A stretch of 64,000 nt of DNA from Sphaerodactylus townsendi (Eukaryota), in contig NC_059440.1 of the NCBI RefSeq assembly GCF_021028975.2, forward strand, positions 15,624,001 to 15,688,000, written 5' to 3'. The notes beneath the pieces were generated by a model. It did no database searches. It was not told where the DNA came from and worked only from the letters and a program-made list of their open reading frames with translations. A program made the position numbers and the translations under genes. Positions 2,448 through 61,134 of this stretch are shown piece after piece. Numbering within the stretch: position 1 is the first letter of the stretch; every line of letters starts with the position of its first letter.

Positions 2448-2877
2448 TTACTTTTTCCTCCCAGAGTGGTCCCTGAGAAAGCAGAACTTGAGTCTCTGCC
2501 CTCAACATCCGAATTTCTGGCCATCAGTATGGCCCTCTATTACTTCCCAGAAACCTCTGCGGTGGATCCAACCATCATCCAGGAAGTCTTCCTCCAATAC
2601 AGGGAGCTTTCCTCCAACTTAAATTTCCTCCAACTCTTGTTGGAGGAAATTTCAGACGAGTGATGGAATTTAGAGGCAGGATTCATCCTTCCCCAATCTC
2701 AGGATTGTATTCTGAATAAACATTTTCAAAGTGATGTTTGCAGTCATCAGCATTAATCATAGAAATCCTATGCTATCTGTGTAATCACAAGCTGATCTGT
2801 GCGTTTGCGTTTGAGAGATCACATTCACAAGTCTTGTTGCTTAGATGCACAACATGCATACGGACACATTTGCCAGA

Positions 2878-3018
2878 GGCTCCTTCCGCACATGCAGAAT
2901 AATGCACTTTCAAACTGCTTTCAGTGCTCTTTGAAGCTGTGCAGAATAGCAAAATCCACTTGCAAACAGTTGTGAAAGTGGTTTGAAAACGCATTATTTT
3001 GTGTGTGCGGAAGGGGCC
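2878..3018. mobile_element. PIF/Harbinger-type MITE (141 bp)
   Basis: Same family; TSD AGA. Confidence 0.85.
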
Positions 3019-3336: not shown

Positions 3337-3530
3337 GGGAGGAAAGTGAGACGGAAGCAGAGATCAACCTGTCGGACTTTCCTTGGTTCCATGGAACTCT
3401 ATCACGTGTCAAAGCTGCCCAATTGGTGCTGTTCGGCGGGGCCAGAAGTCACGGGCTGTTTGTCATTCGGCAGAGCGAAACGCGACCAGGCGAATATGTG
3501 CTGACGTTTAACTTCCAGGGGAAAGCAAAG
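3337..3530 (+). CDS. SH2B2: SH2B2 exon, N-terminal half of the SH2 domain
   Basis: [47 protein letters not shown]. Acceptor cccgacAG; donor is non-canonical AAG|GCAAGC. Confidence 0.96.
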
Positions 3531-6084
3531 GCAAGCATTCCTCAGCGATAAGACTAGCATGGTGTAGCAGTTCATGCTTTTAAACCACAAGCTGGGAGAT
3601 CTGGGCTCGAACCTTCGGTTTGTGAGGAAGCTCTATGGTTAATCATGATCCAGTCACACACTCCCAAGCTAACCTACCTCACAGGGCAGTTTTTGTGAGG
3701 ATAACATGGGGGGAAAGAAAGAAGTCATCGTGTTCACTTATAGTTTCTTGGAGGAAGAGCAAAATGAAAATATAATAGATTAATTTCTTTTAGCAGCAGT
3801 CACAGGAATGGAATGAGTGAGGTTTCTTTCAAGGTTCTGACGTACACCAAACTATGGTTTATCAGCACAGTGGTTTGTCAGCATGTCAACAAGACAGGTC
3901 AGTCCTTGAGCTTGTGTGTGGCCAGTTAATTATTTCTGCTTTCATAGCAAACCATAGTTTGCTGAACCGGCAGCCTAGGCTGCATTTTCCCCTCCAGACT
4001 GAAAGCCGATGGAGGATTCAGTTTGTTGTTGGCATCCTGGTTTGCAAGGGGGAGGGGGAGAACCTTGCTTTGTTGTCCAGCTACAGTTTGCTGCAAACAT
4101 AAAAGAAATAACTGTTCGTGAGGAGGAGGACTTCAGTGAGCGATCCTCACCTGTTCAAATAGCAGCAAACCATGGTTTTTCTGCTTTCTCTGAGTTGTGC
4201 CTTATTCCGCCGCAAGAATTGAAGCTAGTAATCTCAGATAGCTGCGTTCTGGGGGCTTTCTGATACACTGATCAAGTATCTCTTAACTATTGTCACCTGC
4301 CTTGGATCCTGAAATTCTGAGGAGAAAGGTGGGCATAGAAACACTGTGAATAAATAAACGCTGTGTTAACTATTGCCTCTCCTCTGCATGCCTTAGGTTC
4401 TGTGTTTAGTCTGCGTTGCCTGTGGTAGCTTTGGGGTGCCTGGTGGATCATTTGAGATGGAGGAGGACTGAAGCTGTTGGTCAGCAGGACCCGCGGAAAC
4501 CTGGCAGTGGGCCTTGAGTGGGGGCACCATTGCAAACAATTGAAAGCTTAGAAGCCACCCTCTAAAACCACGATCACCACTTAGACTTGATAATTGCCTG
4601 TTGCCTGGCGCAGAAACCCTCTCGCTTGCCAGCCAGAGGAAAACAGCCAAAATTCACTGGCTGTCCTCCTCCATCCACAGTGCCAGCAGAAGGGAAACAT
4701 GGGAAATGCGGTAACCAGTCTTGGCCGTGTAGCAGTGCTTGATTCTCTGCCACACCTTTCGGGTAGTTAGAAGGGTGAGCTCTGAGGAACACAGACAATG
4801 CTGGCATCTGTATGCCAGGAACATGACATTGACAAAGGCTTTATTTATTTCATCCTTTCCCATTGGAGCCATCTGAAATTCTGTCTTTTAGACAGTATTG
4901 CTACTGTTTTTCATATAAAACAGCAGCTTTGAAGAGTTATGCTGAATAGGTGCCATTTCTCATTTCGAGCCAAGGAAGGGAAAACAGCTCTGGGGAGAGA
5001 ACCCAACGCCTTCATTTTTGGCTAAATTTATTTATACATAACTTGTGATAACTCTGAGGAGGAAACATATATTTCAAAAACGTTGTGCAAAGTACCGAAT
5101 GTTTAGAAGAGACTCTATATTCCATTTGAGAACTACACGGAGGGATCGCCCAGATGCTCTGAAGTCAAGGACACGGGCTCCCTCCATTCTCATACCACGT
5201 AGACATGTGATTGTTGGATTTGCTCACCTGGAACAATTACAGTTGATGTTTGAATGCATTTATATAATTATGAATGAACATGAAAAGACTATTCATGCAG
5301 CTGGTTTATGAATGAACTGAGAACGAAGGCAATTGATGCTATTACTTTATGAATGAAATTTTTGGATTTATGAATGAATTATATATAACTTTTGGATTTT
5401 TGGACTTCTGAATGAACTGCATATAAGTGTAAAATTCTTGATTTACCAGTGACGTCGGATTGCTTTAAAAACAACAACACATAATAGCGTTAGGCAAACC
5501 AGTATTCACTCTGACACTTAATCAAGCTTGTGGTAGCTTCCCCAATGACATATTCAGGGCTTCTGGAATTGGCTGAATAGCTTTATCATGCAGAGTTTCC
5601 TTTTTTTTCCCCCATCCGCCTAAGAATAACAGGTAACTTTGCAAAAAAAAATCAATACAGGCATCAGGCTAGAAAGTATTCAATTCCCAGGGCAACATTC
5701 CAAGTGGATACTTAGGCTGGGAACCAATTATTCAGTGACAGGGATTTGAGATTGTGAATTTAGGGTTGTTGGGAAATAAATGTGAATTAACAACAGCTGC
5801 CCTAATGAAGGTGTTAAAAAGGATATAGGAGGCAGTATATCGTTACTGCAGCTACACCTGAAGTTATTGATCTACAAGGAAACGGCCTATCGATTTGATC
5901 CCTAGAGTAGGATGGGGGGAAGAGGACGTGACGTGAATCTTCCTCTTCTCTCTGCTTCCCATTACCTGGTCTTTGCTTCTTCATCTGTGAGGTGCCTGAT
6001 GTACATCAAATGCGCATATATTCTTTCTGCCATAAGAAATCTGTTAATCCGACCCCCCCCCCCCCCCCGTTTCTTCCTTTGCAG

Positions 6085-6256
6085 CATCTGCGACTGTCCT
6101 TGAACGAGAACGGCCAGTGCCACGTCCAACACCTCTGGTTCCAGACCATCTTCGACATGCTGAGGCATTTCCACATGCACCCCATCCCCCTGGAGTCAGG
6201 AGGCTCTGCTGACATCACGCTCCACAGCTATGTGGTAGCCTCGACTTCCTTGCCTG
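6085..6256 (+). CDS. SH2B2: SH2B2 exon, C-terminal half of the SH2 domain
   Basis: [46 protein letters not shown]. Strong polypyrimidine tract plus tgcAG; donor G|GTAGGT. Confidence 0.96.
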
Positions 6257-8172: not shown

Positions 8173-8587
8173 CCGTATATACTCATGTATGAGCCGACCT
8201 GTGTATAAGCCGAGGCACCTAATTTTACTGCCCAAACCTGGGAAAACTTATTGACTCAGGTATAAGCCGAGGGTGGGAAGCCGGGAGGCAGAGGGAGCTC
8301 CTTATTTGGGCAGTGACTCCCCCTGATGTCACTGCCCAAATAAGGAGTTCCCTCTGCCTGCCGGCTGGGTTTGACAAGCCCAGCCAGCCAGGGTGACTCG
8401 GGGTTCCTCCTTCACCCTCCATGAGGGCAGCAACAAGTGGCTTCCCGGGGGGTAGGGAGGTTGTCCCGGCCCCGCCCCCAGCCTCCTTGTGATTAATAGA
8501 AAATGGTGACTGGCGTATAAACCGAGGGGGCTTTTCTCAGCCTTTAAACGGGGCTGAAAAACTCAGCTTATACGCGAGTATATACGG
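8173..8587. mobile_element. Tc1/mariner (Tc2/pogo-type) MITE
   Basis: TA TSD; TIR CCGTATATACTC; repeated TATAAGCCGAG subterminal motifs; internal hairpin at 8291-8354. Confidence 0.85.
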
Positions 8588-8864
8588 TACTTTACTATAA
8601 TTGCAGAGCGAGCAGGTCGCTTTCCCTGCAGAGTTTATAATCTTCATTAAGGTTGGGTTTTTTTAAAAAAAAATCCCCATTTCTGTGCTGCTTCTTAAGG
8701 ATGCTGGTCTTCAAAGGCGATTTACCAAAAAAATAAATAGTGCCATTGAAACCAAAGAAAACAATAGTTGAAAAACAGCTGATATTCAAGGCTGATACTC
8801 TTTGCAACTCTGCCCTTCTGCCCGTTCCAAGAGCGTTTCTTTCTTTTCTGTCCCTCCCTTCCAG

Positions 8865-9181
8865 AGACCAGCCCTTCTCCAGTTGTTGCTTCCCAGCAGC
8901 CCAGTTGCCGAAACGACCTCCAGTCTCAACACTACTTTTCCAGCTTCGTCCCAGGCACTTTCCAGCCAGCCTCCCCTTCCGAGGGCACGACTTCGTCCTC
9001 TTCCTCCTCCGCCAGCCATTCGCTCTACCATCGAGTGGAAGGGACCCTCAGCGTCCGCAGCCGCAGTAACAGCACGGAGCGCCTGTTCGATTCCTCCGCT
9101 GTCGCCGCGGAGGACTACCACGAAAGCGAGGGCTCGCGCAACAGAACCAGAGCAGTGGAGAACCAATATTCATTTTACTGA
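8865..9181 (+). CDS. SH2B2: SH2B2 last coding exon
   Basis: cccttccAG acceptor, phase 1. Reads ..RSRSNSTERL..RTRAVENQYSFY*, the APS C-terminal Cbl-binding tyrosine motif, with TGA at 9179-9181. This frame is not in the ORF track. Confidence 0.93.
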
Positions 9182-9510
9182 TGGCGCCGACGGAGTCGTT
9201 TCCGGGGTCCTGCTTTTTCTTTCTTTTTGGGACGGTTGCTTGCGAGCGAGGAGAGCCGACTTTTTGCTTCCTTGAGACTCTTCGCTTCCTGGTGGCTCTC
9301 TGCATATCTCAGCAGATCTTCAGCCTCTGAACGTGCGCGCTGTCGTCTCTAAAGGCCGCCTGGTGCTCTTGTCATTTCCTTCAAGTGCTTTCAAGATGGC
9401 CTTTGTTAACCCCAGACTCGGAGTGAAGAAAACGATCGAAGTGATACAACAGCCCAATTTGAGTGTTGTGGGTTTTCCGGGTTGGATGGCCGTGTTCCGG
9501 TAGCATTTTC

Positions 9511-9553
9511 TCCCGACGTTTCGCCTGCATCTGTGGCTGGCATCTTCAGAGGA
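9511..9553 (-). ncRNA. Minimal hammerhead ribozyme motif, antisense copy
   Basis: The - strand reads TCCT-CTGAAGA-TGCCAGCCACAGATGCAGGC-GAAA-C-GTC-GGGA. Confidence 0.65.
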
Positions 9554-9642
9554 TCTGATGGTAGGAAAGCAACCATTGGTCCTTTCTCCCACCTTGGACA
9601 TTCCACAGGTATATATACTCCACTTACTTTACCACCATCAGA

Positions 9643-9685
9643 TCCTCTGAAGATGCCAGCCACAGATGCAGGTGAAACGTCAGGA
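9643..9685 (+). ncRNA. Minimal type-I hammerhead ribozyme motif (PLE-associated)
   Basis: TCCT-CTGAAGA-T-GCCAGC cacagat GCAGGT-GAAA-C-GTC-AGGA: core CUGANGA/GAAA, helix I TCCT/AGGA, GUC cleavage triplet. Confidence 0.65.
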
Positions 9686-11603
9686 GAAAATGCTACCGGA
9701 ACACGGCCACACAGCCCGGAAAAACCACAACACCCTAGTGTTTCTGGCCATGAAAGCCTTCAACAACACACTGAACAGCCCATTTCTTGGTTTCCAAGTG
9801 AAATCCACTGTCTCAGGGGCAGAATCATGATGCAAATAGAGGGAGATGCTCTATATTTATGTATCTTGCCTCGCATTGGTTTTCACCCAGTTGGCTACAT
9901 TCAACTAAAAGCAGAATGTGCCAGTTAATATTTAACTGCGTTGGGGCTGGCTCCCCTTTTAAGTAATTATTACCACGAATGGCCCTTTTGGCTTCTAGAG
10001 AGCCAAAATGGGTTGCAGGATTGTAACTTGTCTGCCTGTTATGGGTTCCGTGATCCTCTTTTTAAAGATGTAGGGCTCTGGGTACCCTCAACACACACGC
10101 GCGCACACCCCAGGTATTCTTTCTCAGCCCTTTCCAAACTCTGCCCTCATAATGCAAAGCTTTGCAAGCACAAGAATGCAATTAAAGGAAATACAAAGCT
10201 GCTATCAGAGACGTGGTCTACCTAGCTCAGCTCTGCCTACCTTGATAAACGATGCTCGTCTCCACTGAACCAGCCCTGGTGGTTGTTAATGCAACAACAG
10301 TCCCAGCTCTCTAAATGTTATCAGTTTATGTCTAGACAACAGATCAATGATGGGACGCTGATGCAAAAAAAGATGTATGCGGGTGGAAGTCAGTTTATAG
10401 GCTCCAACTTGCTGCTAGCAGTTACTGCGTTACATTTTGTTTTGCACTGACGAGTCTTTTCTGCAGCAGCGTTGAGCAGACAGCTCTTCAGTTGTGGAAA
10501 GGGGCTTTTCGTTAGCTAACGGTCGATGGTCGGAGAGCTCTCGTGCCTAAATCTCAGCAGTCTTTAGCAGTTGGGGTTCTTACTTGCCCATCATTTTCCC
10601 GGAAGCGAAAGGCAATTTAAGTTAGGAAGTGTTTAATGTTGCCTTTTGTTTCCGCCCTGGCAGCTTTGCGTGTAGAAAGGTAGCCATATTCTTGACGGAG
10701 TACCACATTCTGAACTGAGATCGGGCACAAAGCCCCATGTCTTTGCAGACCACAATTCCTAAAAGACATAATTGAATCGAGCCACAAGATCCCACTGGCC
10801 GTGGAAGTAGAATATCTGTCAGGGTTCTGATCTGATGTATGGTGGTAGTTAATCTAAGGGAGGTGAAAGTTGCCCTCGGGAGACATGGGCAGAGTTCACA
10901 GCGAACTCTAATTTATAAACGGTGGTATGGCCAATCCTCTGGTTAGCTGTGAACCACATTCGGACAGCGCCAGCAGTCCAGGATTTTTGGGAGCTGGTAC
11001 CAAATCAGGATTCCAAACTACGGTTTACAGTTATTTGCTAACCGCAACATGTAGTTAATGGTTGTTCGTTGACATGTCTGAATTTGTAAACCAGTTTGTT
11101 GAGTAGGGCAACAGAGACAGCAGTGATGGGAGGAGGTCTCCCACGCTGGGGATGGAATCGAAGCCAGAAGCTGACAAAACCACCACTCAGAAATGACCAC
11201 CACTCAATAAGCTAAAGTAAAGGTTCCTTTGAGTCACTGTTAGTTTTAACTTGGAACAAGGAAGGTGCGAGACAAAACGAGAGGATGAGTTTAACCCTTG
11301 AAATATTATTAATTGTTTTAAACTTCAATTAACAATTCCCCACTTAAATGTTCCAGTTATTATGTCAGCAAGCAGCAAAGAGCAAGAGGTCACATCAAAA
11401 TGGGTTTCTAGTGGAAGGAGAAACGGCACGAAGATTCCGAAGAAAGCGGCCAACGTTATTCGTCGTTTCCAGGTTACAGTGGTTTAGTTTCCCTCCGTGT
11501 TGATCGCTCTTATCCAGTTTCAAAAGCCGCTGCTTCAGTCCATGCCTGATTGGCCAAAGCCAGAAATAGAAAGTTTAGGATTTAAGGTGCAATATCACTC
11601 CAA

Positions 11604-11734
11604 GGCCTCTTCCGCACATGCACTTTAAATCCACTTTCAGTGCATTTTGCAGCTGGATTTTATAGCAAAATCCACTTTCAAACAATTGTGAAAGTGGATT
11701 GAAAGTGCATTATTCTGCATGTGCGGAAGGGGCC
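11604..11734. mobile_element. PIF/Harbinger-type MITE
   Basis: Same TIRs; TSD CAA/CAG. Confidence 0.8.
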
Positions 11735-12751
11735 CAGGTGCTCACAATGAACCATGTTTTCTGAGGACCATTTCCATAACTCTTCTTTCCTGCCACGATT
11801 GTCTATCAGGCTGGGCATAGTGTAGTTTGGAAGAAAGTAATAGCTCTCCCGGTCTTGCCAGGATACAACCCTGCTCACCAAGGATAATACAACTGATGGC
11901 TAGTTACACTTCTTTGTAAGAACTCTGACAAGTAGCAGATGGGCAAATTAAAGCATTGAATTGTTGTAATAAGCTGACTGCCTGTTAATGAGAAGAGACG
12001 TTTTCCATAAATGCCACAATAAGGCCTCACAGTAGGAGGAATGGCTTGCACGGGAAAACCTTGCTGATACGGACATTTTGTACTATGTAGGGATGGAAAA
12101 TGAGATATTGTAGATGAGTTCTGTGAAGAGAGGCTGATTTTTGTACTGCCCTCTGAAGAAACAGATGCCCAGGACATGGGGGAGCTGCAACCACTGACAT
12201 CATTAGCCTCCTCTTCAACCATGGGAAATCTTCTGGCTGCTGGTCATGTGACAAAAGGGGATGGGGGCAGCCTTTCGATCCATTTTCACAGTGGTTTCTT
12301 CTGTGCCAATTGGACCTAAGGGGAAAAAGAGGGGCCCTGGGAGCTGCAAACTGCAATGTTAAATTTGTAAATACAATTTTTAAGAAAAAAAATGTGAAAA
12401 AAGTTTTAACATGCTGTAGAATAAATTAATTTTATTTACAAAACCAACCAGTAAAAGACATGGAAAGAAAATGACATTCTGGGTTTGTTTGGGTTTTCAT
12501 TTTTTCCCTTCTCTCTCTCTCTCTGAAATAAAAAAACCCAAGCTTTGAACAGGGGGGTGCTGGAGGAATTAATGCTGGGTTGGCCGAGAGGTTCTTTCCC
12601 AGTCTCATCAACTGATATGTAGTTTAGCATTTATTTTATTCTCCCATTATTGCTTTGTACTTCTATGTTGGCGCTAGCAATCTCAAATAACAAAATCTCA
12701 ATGTCCTCAGCAAATGTCAGTTTACGTGATTCTAAGCTAGTGTAAAACCAG

Positions 12752-12892
12752 GGCCCCTTCCGCACATGCAGAATAATGCACTTTCAATCCACTTTCATTG
12801 CACTTTGCAACTGTGCGGAATAGCAAAATCCACTTGCAAACAATTCTGAAAGTGGATTGAAAGTGCATTATTCTGCATGTGCGGAAGGGGCC
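12752..12892. mobile_element. PIF/Harbinger-type MITE
   Basis: TIR GGCCCCTTCCGCACATGCAGAATAATGCACTTTCAATCCACTTTCA; TSD CAG. Confidence 0.85.
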
Positions 12893-12898
12893 CAGGAG

Positions 12899-13310
12899 AA
12901 GCCAGGGTGTGGTAATTAAGAGCGGTGGACTCTAATCTGGAGAACCGGGTTTGAATCCCCACTTTTCCACATGAGCAGCAGATTCTTGTCTGGTGAACTG
13001 GAATTGTTTCCCCACTCCTACACATAATGCCTGCTGGGTGATCTTGGGCTAGTCACAGTTCCCGCTCTACCCACCTCACAAGGGCCCCTTCCACACACAC
13101 AAAATAATGCGTTTTCAAACCACTTTCACAACTGTTTACAAGTAGATTTTGCTATTCCGCACAGCTTCAAAGAGCACTGAAAGCAGTTTGAAAGTGCATT
13201 ATTTTGCATGTGCAGAATGAGCCAAGATATCTGTTGTAGGGAGAGGAAGGGAAGGAGTGTATAACCCACTTCAAGAATTCTTACAGTTGATAAAAGCAAA
13301 GTATAAATCC
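12899..13310 (+). mobile_element. tRNA-derived SINE (Squam3-like) split by a MITE
   Basis: Box A/B-like head tggtaattaag..ggtttgaatccc; tail gtataaatcc. Confidence 0.8.
13083..13223. mobile_element. PIF/Harbinger-type MITE nested in a SINE
   Basis: TSD AAG; interrupts the SINE at 12899-13310. Confidence 0.85.
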
Positions 13311-15574
13311 TAACTTTTCTGAATGTAAGCACGGACATTACTCTTGCCAGCTATGTACATTTACATGAAGTGTGAGGCAATGGTATCTCTATGATATGGC
13401 ACCTCTGGTTATGATATAGTCCTTTTAGTAATTACTGAAGAAGATCCCAATATTTGAAGTGTTCGGTGTAATGCGGCATTGCACACATTTCTGCCATCTG
13501 TTCTACTGTTGGGCATCTCTGTTTGATACATCACATAGTTAAAATCAGTGAGCCAGAATATATGATATTAAGCTGCAATATTTATATGAAATGTGTGTAT
13601 TTTTCACTTCCCATGACATTCTGCTGGCCAGCACTATTCTGCTACAAAGGCACTCAAGGACGACCTCAGAGACGAATGAAAATAACCCATTTAAACCCAA
13701 ATTCAAATAAAAGCATCAGCAACAAACAAACAGAAAGCTCCAATCGCATCACAAAACAATCGATGTAAAGGCAAAAAATGTCTGACAGTAAAAACCCAGT
13801 TAAAAAATGGAAGAAAAAATCCAGAACCTGCTAACCAACCCCCACGGTACCTGCAATGCTTAGACATTCATTTCTATCAATACTGTGTAGCACGGTTTGC
13901 CATTTATCAGTTGGATTCTTTTCTATTTTTATGGGCAGATTCTAAGCAAAAAGAAAGGGAAGTCTGAGGGTGTACCTGCATTTTGATTAATTATATTCTG
14001 CCGAGCCTTTTTTATAGTCTGGCACAGAAAAGAGTCAAAATTATCCTTTATTATACTCTCTAGCTGGATATTGTTTCCCCAAAGCATCGAGCTGATTTAT
14101 TAACCACAGGTCCATGAAACATCCATAAGGTCTCTTTTTATTGTTATTGCATCGTTCATCAACGTGCATGATTGTGCTCAGAAGTAATGCTTGCAGAATC
14201 CTGTTACACACTGGAATGGCAAAGGGCGGATTCATTCCTACATCCCGCTTGTGTTCACGAAGGAGCCCAGAAATACAACTGACGAAACTCGTTCATCCTG
14301 GAGTCTTTTGGCCCTCCTGGGTAGAAAAAGGCCTTGCTGTCTGAGTTGGGGATCGCCTCTCCTTCTGAGAGGACTGGGAAGCTATTTTTTACACCAAAAA
14401 GGTATGAGATCTTGCAGAAAATATCTACTAACAGTCCATGTTGGGTGGAAGTAGTGTAATATTGACAAAAAAAAGATTAAATGGATGTTCATCTGATGCA
14501 AAGAATGAACATTCTAAAAGACTCGCGGTTGTACATTTCAACCTCCCTGGTCATTCCAACAGAGTCTGCCTACTAGCCTTCCTCAGCTTGTAGCCATTCA
14601 GGTGGGTGTCTGGCCCACAGACTGGGAGACCAGAAAAAATACTGAAAGTTGGTGGGCAATGAGAGAGAAATGTGGGAAGGGACAGGATTTCCCTTCTCTT
14701 TCGCACATGGTTCATTTTCATTTGTAAAATATAGATCTCAATTCAGATATAAGGACCCTCGGTTCAGATATAAGCACGTGGACACATTTATCTGCATTCC
14801 CTCATAATATCTAGTAAGCCCCTAATAGTTATTTTCATTACCCTTGAAAAGAATGAACACCATTCTGCAAAACTCGCTGATCAAGGCAAGGGACTTACTA
14901 GCATTTAAAGATGGTCAAATGCCCCCCTGCCCTACTTCAGATGCAAATATACAGGTGTACATAAGTCCCCCCCCTCCCCATTGCATCTACTTCAACCCCA
15001 CAGTTTTAGGAACTGGTTAAACATTCAGAACTTTGACATTTACAGATCCTGTTGAATTTTTTTTAAAGGGCTGTTCGGTTCCCGCTCTGTTTTTAACATG
15101 GAAAATGAAAGAAGGACTTGGGTCAAAAAAGAAACCCCAGTAAAAATCTTGGAGTTATAGGATCCACAATGACTGTGTAGTGTTGATTATGAACGCTATT
15201 TAAAAATACATAGTTAAATTAATATTTGCTATAAAGCTACCAAGAGACAAGAGAAATACAAGGCAGGCTGGCCCTTAAATACAAATGGAAATCCATCTGT
15301 GAACAGGAAATTAATTTGGCCACTGTGCTTTTCTTATGCCCAGGGCGCAATGTTCAAGGGCGAGCAGATCATGCATTTCTACAAACCGCTTAGTGCTTTT
15401 TCGGTATATTGCCAGACCGGCACGATCCAGTCAAAGCTAAAGCAACTTTGACTCATGGGATATTTCAAGGGGCAGAAGGAAGCCTGCGTGTTTAAAAAAA
15501 TATCCCACTAAAAAACAAGGGCTGAATGAATAGGTCCATTGCGCTCTCAGGTGTGGTTAACTGACCACGTATTA

Positions 15575-17757
15575 CAGGGGCGTAAGGAAGCAAACTGGAG
15601 CCCTGGGCAAAACCTGAGTTGGATGCACCCCCACGGCGGCCACCCCACCACGACCCAAAAAAACTTTTTTTGCACCAGGTCATTGGTGCCTTTAGCGCCC
15701 CCTCCCCCTTGGCCTGGCTCCCCCGGGGCCCCCCTACCGCCCCACCCCCGCCCGTCCTGATCGGGTGCCGCAGCTGAGGAAAATCTGCCCCACAGTGCTC
15801 TGGAGAGCCCCCCCAGTCCCTCCCCTGGACCACGCCATGCTGACGGCCGCCTTCGCACGAGACCGCACGTGGATGTTGGGGGGGGGGGGGGTCCGCTATC
15901 TTCCCGAGCCTCTTGGAGCTTGGCAGCCCGTTTGGACAATGGCGCCGACGAGGCCCCACGTCGAGGTTGTGGCGTGTTCGAGCCTCTTTGGGCAGGGGAG
16001 CTGCTGAGGGTTCTGCTGCTGCTGCCCTCCAGTGGCCAAAGATGTGAATTACAAGCGCACCCCCCTCGACCACGCGGCATTTCTCAGGTTATAGTTGCTA
16101 TAATGTGGCGTGTCCGAGCCTCTTTGGGCAGCGGAGCCGCTGGGGATGCTGTTGCTGCTCTCCAGTGGCCAAAGGTGTGAATTACAAGCGCACCCCCGCA
16201 CCCCCACCACGCGGCATTTCTCAGGTTATAGTTGCTATAATGTGCTTCTTGGGCAGGATCGCGCTAACGCTGCCGGAGAGCGTTGTAACTCCGCTCGAAA
16301 TCGTGGTAACGCTGCCAGAGAGCGTTGTAACTCCGCCCGAAATAGTGGTAACGCTCTCCGAGAGAGTGCTAACTCTGTGGCTAGCACGCTTCATGCGTTA
16401 TTACGATCTTGCGGAGGCGTTACAACGTTTCTTGCGGAGTTACAACGCTTTCCGGCAGCGTTAGGGTGATCTCGGGGAGCCCTCCCCAGCAGCTCCTCTG
16501 CCCAAGAAGCACATTATAGCAACTATAGCCTGAGAAATGCCGCGTGGTGGGGGTCCCGGGGTGCGCTTGTAATTCACACCTTTGGCCACTGGAGAGCAGC
16601 AGCAGCATCATCCCCAGCGGCTCCCCTGCCCAAAGAGGCTCGGACACGCCACAACCTCGACGTGGGGCCTCGTGCGAAGGTGGCGCCCCCTTAGGAGAGG
16701 CTCTGGGCTCCATTGTCCAAACGGGCTGCCAAGCTCCAAGAGGCTTGGGAAGATAGCGGAATCCCGCCATAACATCCACGTGCGGTCTCGTGCGAAGGCG
16801 GCGGGCAGCGTGGCGTGGTCCAGGGGAGGGACGGGGCGGGGTGGGGGGGCTCTCCCGAGCACTGTGGGGCAGATTCTCCTCAGCTGCGGCACCCGATCAG
16901 GGCGGGGGGGGAGGGGGGTCCCGGGGGAGCCAGGCCAAGGGGGGGGGGCGTTTGAAGCCAATGACGGGAACCCCTCCCTCCCCGTCGGCTCCTGGGTGAT
17001 GAGTCCCGAGAGAGAGCGCCGATTGGGCCGCCGACTTTCCTCTTTCCGCTTGATTGGCCGGCGGGGCAGTAAAGGCGGAAGCGTCCAGGGGGTCCCGGCG
17101 GGGAGAAGGGGGCCCTCCTGCAGGGTCGTCGTCGTTGGGTGGACTCTGGCTGCCCTCCCTCTCTCCCTCGCTGGCCCTGATGGACGGGGAGGGGCTGTCA
17201 GCGGCGGGGGCCTAACGAGGCAAACTGGAGCCCTGGGCAAAACCTGAGTTGGGTCTCCCCCCCCCCCCCCCCCAGGGCGGCCACCCCACCGGGACCAAAA
17301 CACATTTTTTTGCACCAGGTCATTGGGGCCTGCAGGGGGTGCATTTTAAACCGTATTGGCACCAAAATTTCAGCGTATCATCAGGAGACTGTCCTGACGC
17401 TACCCCTCAAGTTTGGTGCAGTTTGGTTCAGAGGGGCCAAAGTTATGGACCATCAAGAGGGTAGCCCCCATCTCCTTAGCTCCCATTGGAAAGCATGGGG
17501 GATGGGTCACCCCCTTTGAGGGTCCATAACTTTGGCCCCCCTGACCCAAACTGCACCAAACCTGGGAGGAATCATCAGGACAATCTCTTGATGATACTCT
17601 GAAATTTTGGTGCCGATATGTCCAAAAATGCACCCCTGCAGGCCAAAATGAAAAAACAACAAAAAATAAAAACAGATTGCTCACATGCCCCCACGGGACT
17701 CAAAATTCCGATGCCCTGGGGAATGGCCCAAACTGCCAAATGGATGTTACGCCCCTG
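15575..17757. mobile_element. 2.18 kb GC-rich non-autonomous hAT-type element with nested palindromes
   Basis: 11 bp TIR CAGGGGCGTAA/TTACGCCCCTG; perfect 8 bp TSD ACGTATTA at 15567-15574 and 17758-17765. Confidence 0.9.
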
Positions 17758-57830: not shown

Positions 57831-59511
57831 TAAAAATGCTCGGGGGTGCTTATTTTTTATTACATCGGGCGAAAATAGATGGGGGGAGGAGCAACCCTCC
57901 AGTCAGGCAACCCCCTCCCCAAAACCCCACCGTCGCACGTCCATCTTCGTTTGAAACAACAGAATTCCCACAATAAAGAGGGGAAAGGGGGGGGGGGATC
58001 AGGCAGTCCCATGGCTGACCCCGTGAGCCCCCTGCTCCCAATTCTGTTTCCCGCCCATTTTCTCAATTCAAAGCTTCAATCGCCCCCTCCCCCATTGCCA
58101 GGCAAAATACAATTCCTGGCTTTATATGATCTCCCTTTCCTTCCAAAAAGCACCCCCCCCCCCCGCCGCATCCTTAAATCGTGTGGTTGCAAAGGAGTAA
58201 ATGGATAGTGTAAATAAACAACTGGACATGTGTGTGTTGGCGGGAAGTTAAAAGGGGAATAATAAGACAATCAGCCCCCTGCCCTGTTATCCTTTCGGCT
58301 AGAAAGGTCTTTGGTCAAGATCTCAATTCAGAGCATGGAGGAAAAGCCATTTTCTTCTTCCCCACCCCATAAGGCGGGCTGAACGGTTTCTTTTCTCTCT
58401 CCCCTTCCCCACCAGCTCAAAAACGCAATGTCTATTTAAGGGGAATAACTAGATACTCCTGACCCCTAAAAGCTAGACAAGCATCCCATTCCTCAAAGAA
58501 GATTTTTTTTCTGACTTGACCTTTTTTGTTGTTTTGTTTTGCTTGGGGGGCGGGGGGAGTAAAATCTCACACACTGAAAGATTTGCATTATGTTTTCAAA
58601 AGTAAATATTTTTAACTGTAAATATTTACAGTAAATGTCCTGTAAATATTTTTCGACATTCATATGTTATGATTAGAGTAGGAAGGTAACTAACTGCCCA
58701 TCCCCAATAAGTGAGATGGGTGTCCCCCCACCTGAACCCTCCCCCATTTTGGGGTTAGATTAAAATTCAAAACACTAAAGAATCCTTTCTTGTTCCTTAT
58801 GAATGCGCTGTCTTTGGTTTAGTGGAGGATTCTTAACAGCAAGGTTCAGCTTTGATGCCATGATAAAGAAAAGAGCGCCTCCATGCCTGTGCAAAGTGTG
58901 GCAGGTGACTGAAGTGTTCTGTATGGAATATCTCTGGAGGAGAGAACATTTGTCTAGTTGTTGGGCAGAAAAAGGCACACCGTTTCAGGCAAACCCCAGA
59001 ATGCCCCCTACCAGGAGTGGGTAAAGTGTGAAATCAAAAGGATAGAGTCACAGGTGGCACAGTTTATATAGAAGTTGATACAGGCAAGGACACCTTCAGA
59101 TATAAGTCCCAGGTCACAAAGGGCTATATAGTTGTTGAGCAAAAAGCTAAATTGTGGACCATCAGAAGTATTATTGTTTGCCTGCAAGAGAACGGGGCTC
59201 ATGCCCACTAGGTGTTTCTCTGTAAAACTCTGCCCAAAGCAAGTTGTTTATATGCTGAAACAAATAAGAATCAGGCTATTCCAAATAAGGTTACATATTG
59301 CCGTATCCTAAATTCATTAGTTTGTACACATTCCAGTTATACTGGACATCTCTGGTTTTTCTTGCAAGTTTTGCAATCTTCTGCTACACTTGTTTGCAGA
59401 CATCACTGTCCTGTTTAGCCCGTATGGATTCCTTAGCAAGCAAAAGTTACAGAAGCTAAAACCTTCATATATTCATTAAATATGATCCACATACTGAACA
59501 TCTTGAAATTA

Positions 59512-59879
59512 CTGAAGGCTTTCATGGCTAGATTTAACTGGTTGTGGTGGGTTTCCTGGGCTGTGTGGCCATGGTCTGGTGGATCTTGTTCCTGTCGTTT
59601 TACTTGCATCTGTGGCTGGCATCTTCCCTGGACTGAAAAATTCCACCTGCAATACTGTACCTTTGTATAACAAGTTCCACCCAAACGCTTACTGATTGGC
59701 TCCCCACCTGGGGGCATGACAATTTATACCCCACTAACATTCCCTTCTTGCTGGACACAGTGTGTAACAGACTTCCCTCTATGATACACCTCTGAAGATG
59801 CCAGCCACAGTTGCAGGCGAAACATCAGGAACAAGCTCCACCAGACCACTGCCACATAGCCCAGGAAACCCACTACAAC
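59512..59879. mobile_element. Penelope-like inverted terminal fragment with a decayed hammerhead (59789-59830)
   Basis: Inverted arms; cctCTGAAGAtgccagccacagttgcaggcGAAAcatcagga; 13 bp flanking direct repeat CATCTTGAAATTA. Confidence 0.75.
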
Positions 59880-61134
59880 CATCTTGAAATTAACTTGGAA
59901 ATAAATAGGTTATGTTCAAGGGCCACCCCGTGTACAGAATGTTGCAGTAATCTAGTCTGCAGATTGTAGAAACATGGACCAGTGTGACTAGAGCAGCAGA
60001 TTTTAGAAGGAAGAGTTTTCCAATCTGGTGTATATGAAAGAAAGTCCTAGTTCTTATGTACGTATCTTTTGGATGTGAACTATGTTCAGTGATCTGGGAC
60101 TAAACAGCATTTCGGAAATGAGTCCACAATGAATCTATACACAGCATCCTTGAAATGCGGGTTAAAGCCATTTGCACTTAACCATTTGTGCAAGATGATG
60201 TTTTACAGCAACTGGACTAGGTACAAATAACCAGTTGTTTTCAAACTTTCTTCCTTCAAGGACTCGTTTTCAAGTTGACTTTCTTGTTGAGGAGCCAAAT
60301 TATGTTATAGAACATTCTGAAGATCATTCTAAGGTACTCAATTCATGCGGGGTGCTGACCTGTCCTGTTGGCCTCACTGTTGTTCGCATGAGCTGACTCA
60401 AGAATCCAGCTCAGGCCACCGTTTCTCTGTGACTTGGAATTACAAGGTGACATTGGTGGTGGTTAAACAGGTTTTTAAGCAAGTATAAAAAAATGTTATC
60501 CATTAATACTCTTTTTTTCAGTGAGATTTGCTATTTCAAGGAGATTTGCTATTCCCTAAAAACATTTCCTTAAATAAGGGATAACTGATTTAAATAACTC
60601 AAGCCCCTAACTGATGGTTGCTTTGCTTGCCTACTTTGGAGTGAACTCGTGAGCTGATTAACATATATGTTTGAGCAAACGTGTATAAGATTGGGTTATG
60701 AAATGAAGTCGCTTACAATAGATTAAAACAATGCACATGTTACAACAAATTAAAAACAATACAAATATTATTGATAAATAATAAAGGAACAAATTGGCAT
60801 ATAGTTCTGGTACCCCAACAGGGCCTAAATGGCTAATATAGAAGATCTTCAAGTGACTTGTAGGTAAGCAAGGTTATGCAAAGATATGGAAGTCCTTAAA
60901 AAAAATAAACCTGAAATAAAGACAAGATAATAAATCCCGGTGGGAGCAGATAAATCCATTAATAGCCATTACCTGGGCTGTAATCTCTTCAACTGACACA
61001 AAACAGTAACTAACCCTTTGGTTCAATACAATTTAAGCAATGGTACTTCTATTCCAGAGACAGAAGCAATAAAATAAATTCACACTATACACAGTCAGAA
61101 TCAATCAGGACTTTGCAAGATTCCATGTTCATAA

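Follow-up and report, generated by a model that had tools for sequence, protein, structure and literature searches.

What does a hammerhead ribozyme do when a retroelement carries it into the 3' untranslated region (UTR) of a cellular gene, and in the same event lays its own complement beside it? The question is raised by a 64,000-nucleotide stretch of the Sphaerodactylus townsendi genome, the window, in which positions are counted from its first letter and where a Penelope-like insertion follows the stop codon of SH2B2. A preliminary description had seen here either a switch, in which the masked ribozyme would be freed to cut the UTR, or an inert insertion. Our preferred reading, to which we give a probability of about 0.74, supports the second: the insertion would be a tolerated passenger, a fold-back in the SH2B2 3' UTR whose 110-bp hairpin buries the only sense hammerhead and leaves the message likely uncut.

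The host gene is SH2B2 (APS), as had been proposed. The SH2 exon matches APS best (E 3e-30, as against 7e-25 for SH2B1), and translation of the SH2B2 frame gives the C-terminus RAVENQYSFY followed by TGA at 9179-9181, so that the hairpin starts 282 nt past the stop where about 280 nt had been given.

3339-3530, SH2 exon, identified by its best match, APS
8864..9181, + strand, last coding exon of SH2B2 (APS), from translation and a spliced contig
9182..12463, + strand, SH2B2 3' UTR of about 3.3 kb, from the contigs of one run (X22) and the AATAAA at 12420

In a scan for poly(A) signals this AATAAA was the nearest 3' of the stop, in agreement with the earlier remark that none lies between stop and element; weaker signals occur after the stop at 9426, 9835 and 10181. 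The transcript evidence comes from run X22, which was taken as RNA from its spliced contig, no same-species run being recorded as RNA. Five of the 22 listed runs were aligned, the three same-species runs all coming from one study, and X19 and X20 were treated as DNA because they continue through the intron or match it unspliced. A 795-nt X22 contig splices the exon at 6083-6255 onto 8864-9485, entering the left arm of the hairpin for only 23 bases; others cover 9703-11661, bridging the right junction of the element, and 11710-12463, and the contig that follows has a depth of 3.4. No X22 contig runs across the hairpin, a point against the preferred reading; contig depth is 61 before and 85 after the potential cut site, figures that are no measure of level. 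On this one RNA-type run, the Penelope insertion lies inside the SH2B2 3' UTR, as the preliminary description had thought probable. Joints skipping the insertion, as expected of an empty site, were not seen among the 15 of 208 joints listed, with same-species runs from a single study. Runs of two other species align to the coding exons, one contig ending at 9185, and at 80% likeness no contig from these species was listed over the unique UTR flanks. In the distal UTR, single-base differences between the window and X19 or X22 (10352, 10903, 11027, 11199, 11424 and 11448) provide usable allele markers.

Other structured features lie nearby. The same 3' UTR holds an unrelated, MITE-like palindromic element at 11603-11736 (-70.2 kcal/mol, z -8.9), where the RNA contigs break, and look-alikes were recognized by eye at about 2298-2447, 2876-3017, 12753-12892 and 13083-13220. 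A 27-bp near-perfect hairpin at 8291-8354, in the last SH2B2 intron, falls within a repeat and has sub-threshold microRNA matches only, and at about 15560-17330 a compound element rich in GC was seen by eye, whose ends are repeated and whose interior has inverted segments.

The insertion itself is made up of the following parts.

9448..9459, + strand, left target-site duplication of 12 nt, 11/12 identical to the right copy
9463..9572, - strand, inverted 5'-truncated Penelope copy, tailless, ending 81 nt past the element ATG; antisense in the mRNA
9515..9549, - strand, minimal hammerhead core with G10.1-C11.1 intact; no ribozyme in SH2B2 mRNA
9577..9773, + strand, sense 5'-truncated Penelope copy with pLTR end, hammerhead, ORF start and tail
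9647..9681, + strand, minimal type I hammerhead core, potential cut after C9681
9653..9772, + strand, first 40 codons of a Penelope RT-endonuclease ORF, by similarity to an Anolis RT and to L120, an intact copy in the same genome
9734..9773, + strand, one-sided Penelope tail of 40 nt, between the two copy end points
9774..9785, + strand, right target-site duplication

The Penelope-like origin recognized in the preliminary description is borne out at both the protein and the DNA level. The codons at 9653-9772 share 28/40 identical residues with the N-terminus of an Anolis RT protein of 836 aa (E 1e-17), a relative that carries RVT_1, and the insertion shares 87% DNA identity over 135 nt with the start of the intact ORF in L120 (G000:C3:107798-113245). 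That ORF, at 1403-3960 of L120, is stop-free over 819 aa, 85% identical to the Anolis protein and, by eye, ends in a C-terminal GVY-YIG motif with Cys/His residues; six hand-picked regions gave no intact ORF. The ATG at 9653 overlaps A9 and helix II, within a core common to L120. Longer family copies extend upstream into an endonuclease resembling what we take to be the GIY-YIG type, which Pfam and NCBIfam did not name from a 63-aa piece. By its sequence, then, the insertion is identified as a Penelope/Poseidon end from a family with one ORF, an RT plus a C-terminal GIY-YIG; the Poseidon placement is putative and is drawn from a layout resembling that of the Anolis element of PMC11167929.

Terminal inverted arms together with a target duplication would look the same in a MITE, an inverted-repeat DNA transposon whose hammerhead-like letters arose by chance. 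We give that reading next to no credence: it is refuted by the match of the arms to a Penelope RT-endonuclease N-terminus, which extends into the GIY-YIG-like endonuclease in longer copies, and by the match to the intact L120 ORF, while loop and arm lengths vary by locus and the ends are asymmetric through the Penelope tail. Two further observations concern L120. The right duplication begins with four bases (9774-9777) that also match the continuation of the element there, a possible priming microhomology; and L120, although full-length and intact, also has an inverted arm, of 89 nt and directly upstream of the ORF. On transcription from the flank, this arm would pair with the hammerhead and the start codon of L120.

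The inverted arms at 9463-9572 and 9624-9733 are 110 nt long and 92% complementary, with 101/110 Watson-Crick and two G-U pairs and a longest unbroken Watson-Crick run of 39 bp; they enclose a 51-nt loop in which segment 9577-9623 of the sense copy lies. The predicted fold has an energy of -214.6 kcal/mol (z -24), and none of 100 shuffles was equally stable. The opposed arms described earlier are real, their reported 100 nt being an inner-trimmed form of the 110. A scan of the whole window found exactly two hammerhead cores, a + strand one at 9647-9681 and a - strand one at 9549-9515, one complete minimal core per arm as had been stated, and the cut position given after 9681 was correct. The CUGANGA, GAAA and NUH core and helices I and II are present on both strands; an Rfam scan returned no hammerhead family in 31 matches at E up to 10. 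In the sense core, helix I has 4 bp, an extra U follows A9, helix III is absent, and helix II has 5 bp with an A-A mismatch found family-wide. The pair at 10.1-11.1 is G-U (G9655/U9673), the conserved G10.1-C11.1 pair having been lost by a CpG-type C-to-U change at 11.1 that is seen in 18/57 family matches. The idea of two opposed ribozymes holds for the two DNA strands but not for the transcript: SH2B2 mRNA carries a single ribozyme, in the right arm, and the left arm is its complement. Both arms carry the variant 9697/9499, which occurs in 9% of the family, as expected if they derive from one template. Divergence from the sample majority is low (13/197 sense and 5/110 antisense positions), which points to a fairly young insertion.

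Such fold-backs are frequent. The 35-nt core has 12,878 exact genome copies, and the exact head-to-head arm pattern, with arms 30-130 nt apart, was found at 2,295 loci and at none in the control. Fifty blind-picked 10-kb stretches (500 kb) contained 29 insertions; both orientations were present in 14 of them, and 8 had the two cores placed head to head, from which we extrapolate about 105,000 insertions and 29,000 head-to-head pairs genome-wide; when pooled with 800 kb of two gene regions, 12/71 were head to head, or about 16,700 genome-wide (95% range 8,600-29,200). At the blind-picked density, the chance that a stretch of 3.28 kb holds one head-to-head pair is about 5%. We conclude that the SH2B2 insertion is an ordinary instance of a known Penelope insertion type. 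As a single locus, one among roughly ten to thirty thousand fold-backs, it matters little. The window contains a second head-to-head Penelope insertion at 59513-59880, from another subfamily and with both cores decayed, which is flanked by a duplication of 13 nt whose two copies, 59499-59511 and 59880-59892, match perfectly. At 705-920 of another locus (L116, G000:C1:6511000-6512600), two same-strand hammerhead copies lie 63 nt apart and could dimerise in cis.

The ends of the copies bear on how the insertion was made. Among 28 head-to-head loci, the SH2B2 one included, 19 had target duplications, as compared with 3/756 swapped-flank controls; six short-armed loci of a sample of 34 were left out of this test. 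In 113/126 family matches the end falls into one of two clusters, +75-99 or +105-124 from the ATG, and the SH2B2 insertion has its left end at +81 and its right end at +121. In the 34-locus sample, which was partly picked by likeness to the SH2B2 copy or by the exact pattern, both ends extend to at least +74 at 27 loci, and every one of these 27 combines a short end (74-95) with a long end (108-121; p 4e-9 under independence). The same pairing was found in the 8 two-ended loci from blind-picked and upstream stretches. The Anolis protein is described, in the extracts available, as cutting and extending both strands, starting at two sites (PMC11167929). The strict pairing of short and long ends suggests priming from both cut strands as the simplest inference: the element protein would cut both target strands, and each cut strand would prime reverse transcription, one of them at the near start site and the other at the far one; the short cDNAs so made would then be joined head to head. 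This is a point of general interest for the mechanism of Penelope integration.

Whether the sense ribozyme would act depends on its release from this duplex. To pair helices I and II while the core stays open is predicted to cost 82 kcal/mol in the whole insertion, where the probabilities of both helices are 0.0, and the hammerhead shape is predicted to cost 77 kcal/mol in a nascent chain ending at 9690. With all 16 A of the left arm read as G, the cost is still 69 kcal/mol, in a model that overrates inosine pairs. The predicted distance from the hammerhead shape is 2.8 kcal/mol for an isolated 57-nt core and 9.0 for the whole sense unit. The antisense arm is transcribed first, and the sense ribozyme would pair with it while emerging; so buried, it would leave the SH2B2 message likely uncut. 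Masking of the sense ribozyme by its antisense arm, which the preliminary description had inferred, is upheld by the predicted 82 kcal/mol, and no cleavage at 9681 is predicted.

A partner for the ribozyme would have to come from elsewhere. Dimeric cleavage was reportedly described by Lunse and colleagues in 2017. From the first coding exon (C16:15,608,429) to the poly(A) site there is no second complete sense core, and the nearest upstream sense cores (L050 and L051) themselves lie within inverted pairs. When two sense copies were cofolded, a dimer with paired ACGU was not the lowest-energy form, in a model that ignores tertiary contacts. In the extracts available, published minimal hammerheads were uncleaved as monomers and weakly cleaved as dimers (PMC4209133), and the Anolis hammerhead cleaved only with the element's protein, no RNA-seq reads ending at its site (PMC11167929). 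The literature searched gave no report on how a G-U at 10.1-11.1 affects the cleavage rate.

These results weigh heavily on the proposed switch, according to which editing, a helicase or a Penelope protein would free the hammerhead, and a cut after 9681 would take away the distal part of the UTR together with the poly(A) tail and destabilize the mRNA. We regard this as very improbable, and place at the same low level a kill switch gated by protein, in which the antisense arm would silence the hammerhead until the Penelope RT-endonuclease or a host helicase opened the duplex, and SH2B2 mRNA would then be cut after 9681. The core lacks none of its residues, helix I is 4 pairs long, an intact Penelope ORF exists in the same genome, an Anolis relative cleaves once the element's protein is added (PMC11167929, in extract), and there is a precedent for a 3' UTR hammerhead in Clec2 (PMC6155905, likewise). 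Nevertheless, 69-82 kcal/mol stand against the active shape, a predicted gap that is too large and survives simulated editing; the core includes 11 A, conserved ones among them, and editing would likely damage it before freeing it. Even if unmasked, the monomer would have no helix III, no cis partner and a G-U at 10.1-11.1, the mark of CpG decay in the core, and related motifs are described as inactive alone (extracts of PMC4209133 and PMC11167929). Furthermore, the head-to-head arrangement is the default of the family; the masking is a by-product of how it inserts, and this counts against a switch.

Unmasked sense copies in introns argue in the same direction. We looked at two gene regions on C16, one covering the 600 kb upstream of a match to an Auts2 domain and the other the 200 kb that surround matches to CUT domains, with gene limits that we presume from human gene sizes. 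Solo copies there were 11 sense and 14 antisense, and in these 800 kb of inferred gene body the unmasked intact cores were 6 sense and 2 antisense, a small sample from introns. Unmasked sense ribozymes in pre-mRNA are tolerated in this small sample with inferred gene limits. The idea that masking lets ribozymes survive in genes was not supported: head-to-head insertions made up 4/42 in the gene regions as against 8/29 in the blind-picked stretches (p 0.06), the opposite of the direction it would require.

To be silent as a ribozyme is not to be free of effect, since long 3' UTR duplexes can lower translation in human cells (PMC3458544, in extract) and, by analogy, this one may. The ribozyme could be silent while ADAR, Staufen or similar proteins acting on the 110-bp duplex lower the translation, export or stability of SH2B2 mRNA, an alternative that we consider unlikely but worth keeping in view. 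The duplex is strong (z -24, with a 39-bp perfect run) and lies in the UTR 282 nt from the stop; in human reporters, as extracted from PMC3458544, output fell when the duplex lay 472 or 1842 nt past the stop, at the latter distance about twofold, and did not fall at 15 or 65 nt. On the other side, the one RNA-type run, X22, has no A-to-G differences listed over 9390-9860, in contigs that drop rare variants; its two locus-specific contigs have none in the 23 and 31 arm bases that they cover, and no sign of selection was found. The SH2B2 duplex is also only about a third as long as an Alu pair, which counts against this alternative. The left X22 contig stops at 9485, directly before A9486, which faces C9710, while the DNA runs X19 and X20 reach 9495; editing, a variant or loss of cover could account for this stop, which in one run is not evidence.

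The same duplex could also be a source of endo-siRNA or piRNA-like RNA that helps to silence the Penelope family, as one of thousands. A 39-bp perfect duplex is long enough for Dicer, and the arms match about 100,000 copies; Rfam microRNA matches were far under gathering (for example 38.6 against 85 bits), as is usual for long hairpins. We hold such a role to be highly doubtful.

Certain observations also stand against the tolerated passenger. Both cores are intact by the strict pattern here, as compared with 4/33 other head-to-head loci; without the left arm, a predicted gap of only about 3 kcal/mol separates the core from the hammerhead shape; and with an intact ORF in the genome, a helper protein may be present. 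The intactness of both cores may reflect youth plus the way in which this locus was picked out for the preliminary description, which can explain it, or possibly evolutionary selection.

The wider interest lies in the class of insertion. This genome makes duplexes like those of inverted Alus in single insertion events, and hundreds are likely to lie in the UTRs of its transcripts: per 30 Mb, about 480 fold-backs are expected at the blind-picked density, and 38 by the strict pattern. They would amount to a load of self dsRNA that is unexplored in reptiles. The literature searched held no account of an mRNA switch made from a Penelope fold-back; measured against it, SH2B2 would, if cleaved in vivo, be the first host mRNA under the control of a Penelope hammerhead. 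A kill switch, if true, would link retroelement activity to the dose of an adaptor protein, and hundreds of other UTRs in this lineage could share the latent device.

The closest known arrangement is the unit of EN+ Penelope-like elements (Craig et al., 2021; PMC8557442), described in the extracts available as an inverted 5'-truncated copy with a one-sided 30-40-bp tail. The SH2B2 insertion shares with it the inverted truncated copy at the 5' end, the tail at one end and the pLTR hammerhead, and differs in that both copies are under 200 nt and form a compact hairpin in a host 3' UTR; in those extracts the tail is said only to be often at one end, whereas a strict short-plus-long pairing was seen here. 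With PAc, the Poseidon element of Anolis carolinensis (Frangieh et al., 2024; PMC11167929, in extract), it shares an ORF start at helix II, a cut site less than 30 nt past the start codon, a target ATT motif and a pair of start sites at which copies end, one some 111-118 nt into the ORF and the other a tail length earlier, the tail between the start points being described there too. The 836-aa Anolis protein may or may not be PAc itself; unlike PAc, the present family is of a gecko type with an A-A mismatch in helix II.

The sense core resembles the minimal hammerheads of metazoan Penelope-like elements (Cervera and De la Pena, 2014; PMC4209133, in extract) in its lack of helix III, its palindromic 15.2-16.2, the extra base between 9 and 10.1 and the short helix I. 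Opposite-strand pairs of such hammerheads 100-700 bp apart had already been published there, and G10.1-C11.1 is highly conserved among them, whereas the SH2B2 sense copy has U at 11.1. The discontinuous hammerhead of rodent Clec2 (PMC6155905, in extract) shares the vertebrate 3' UTR site, but it is of type III, is present in several mammals and is built by long-range pairing, while in SH2B2 pairing destroys the ribozyme; in a Clec2-type test, the active fold was predicted not to be favoured in the mRNA context, with a penalty of 82 kcal/mol. With inverted Alu pairs (Capshew et al., 2012; PMC3458544, in extract), finally, the insertion has in common a retroelement-derived intramolecular 3' UTR duplex that is a potential ADAR substrate; unlike them, the SH2B2 duplex comes from a single insertion event, is shorter and closes on a tight 51-nt loop.
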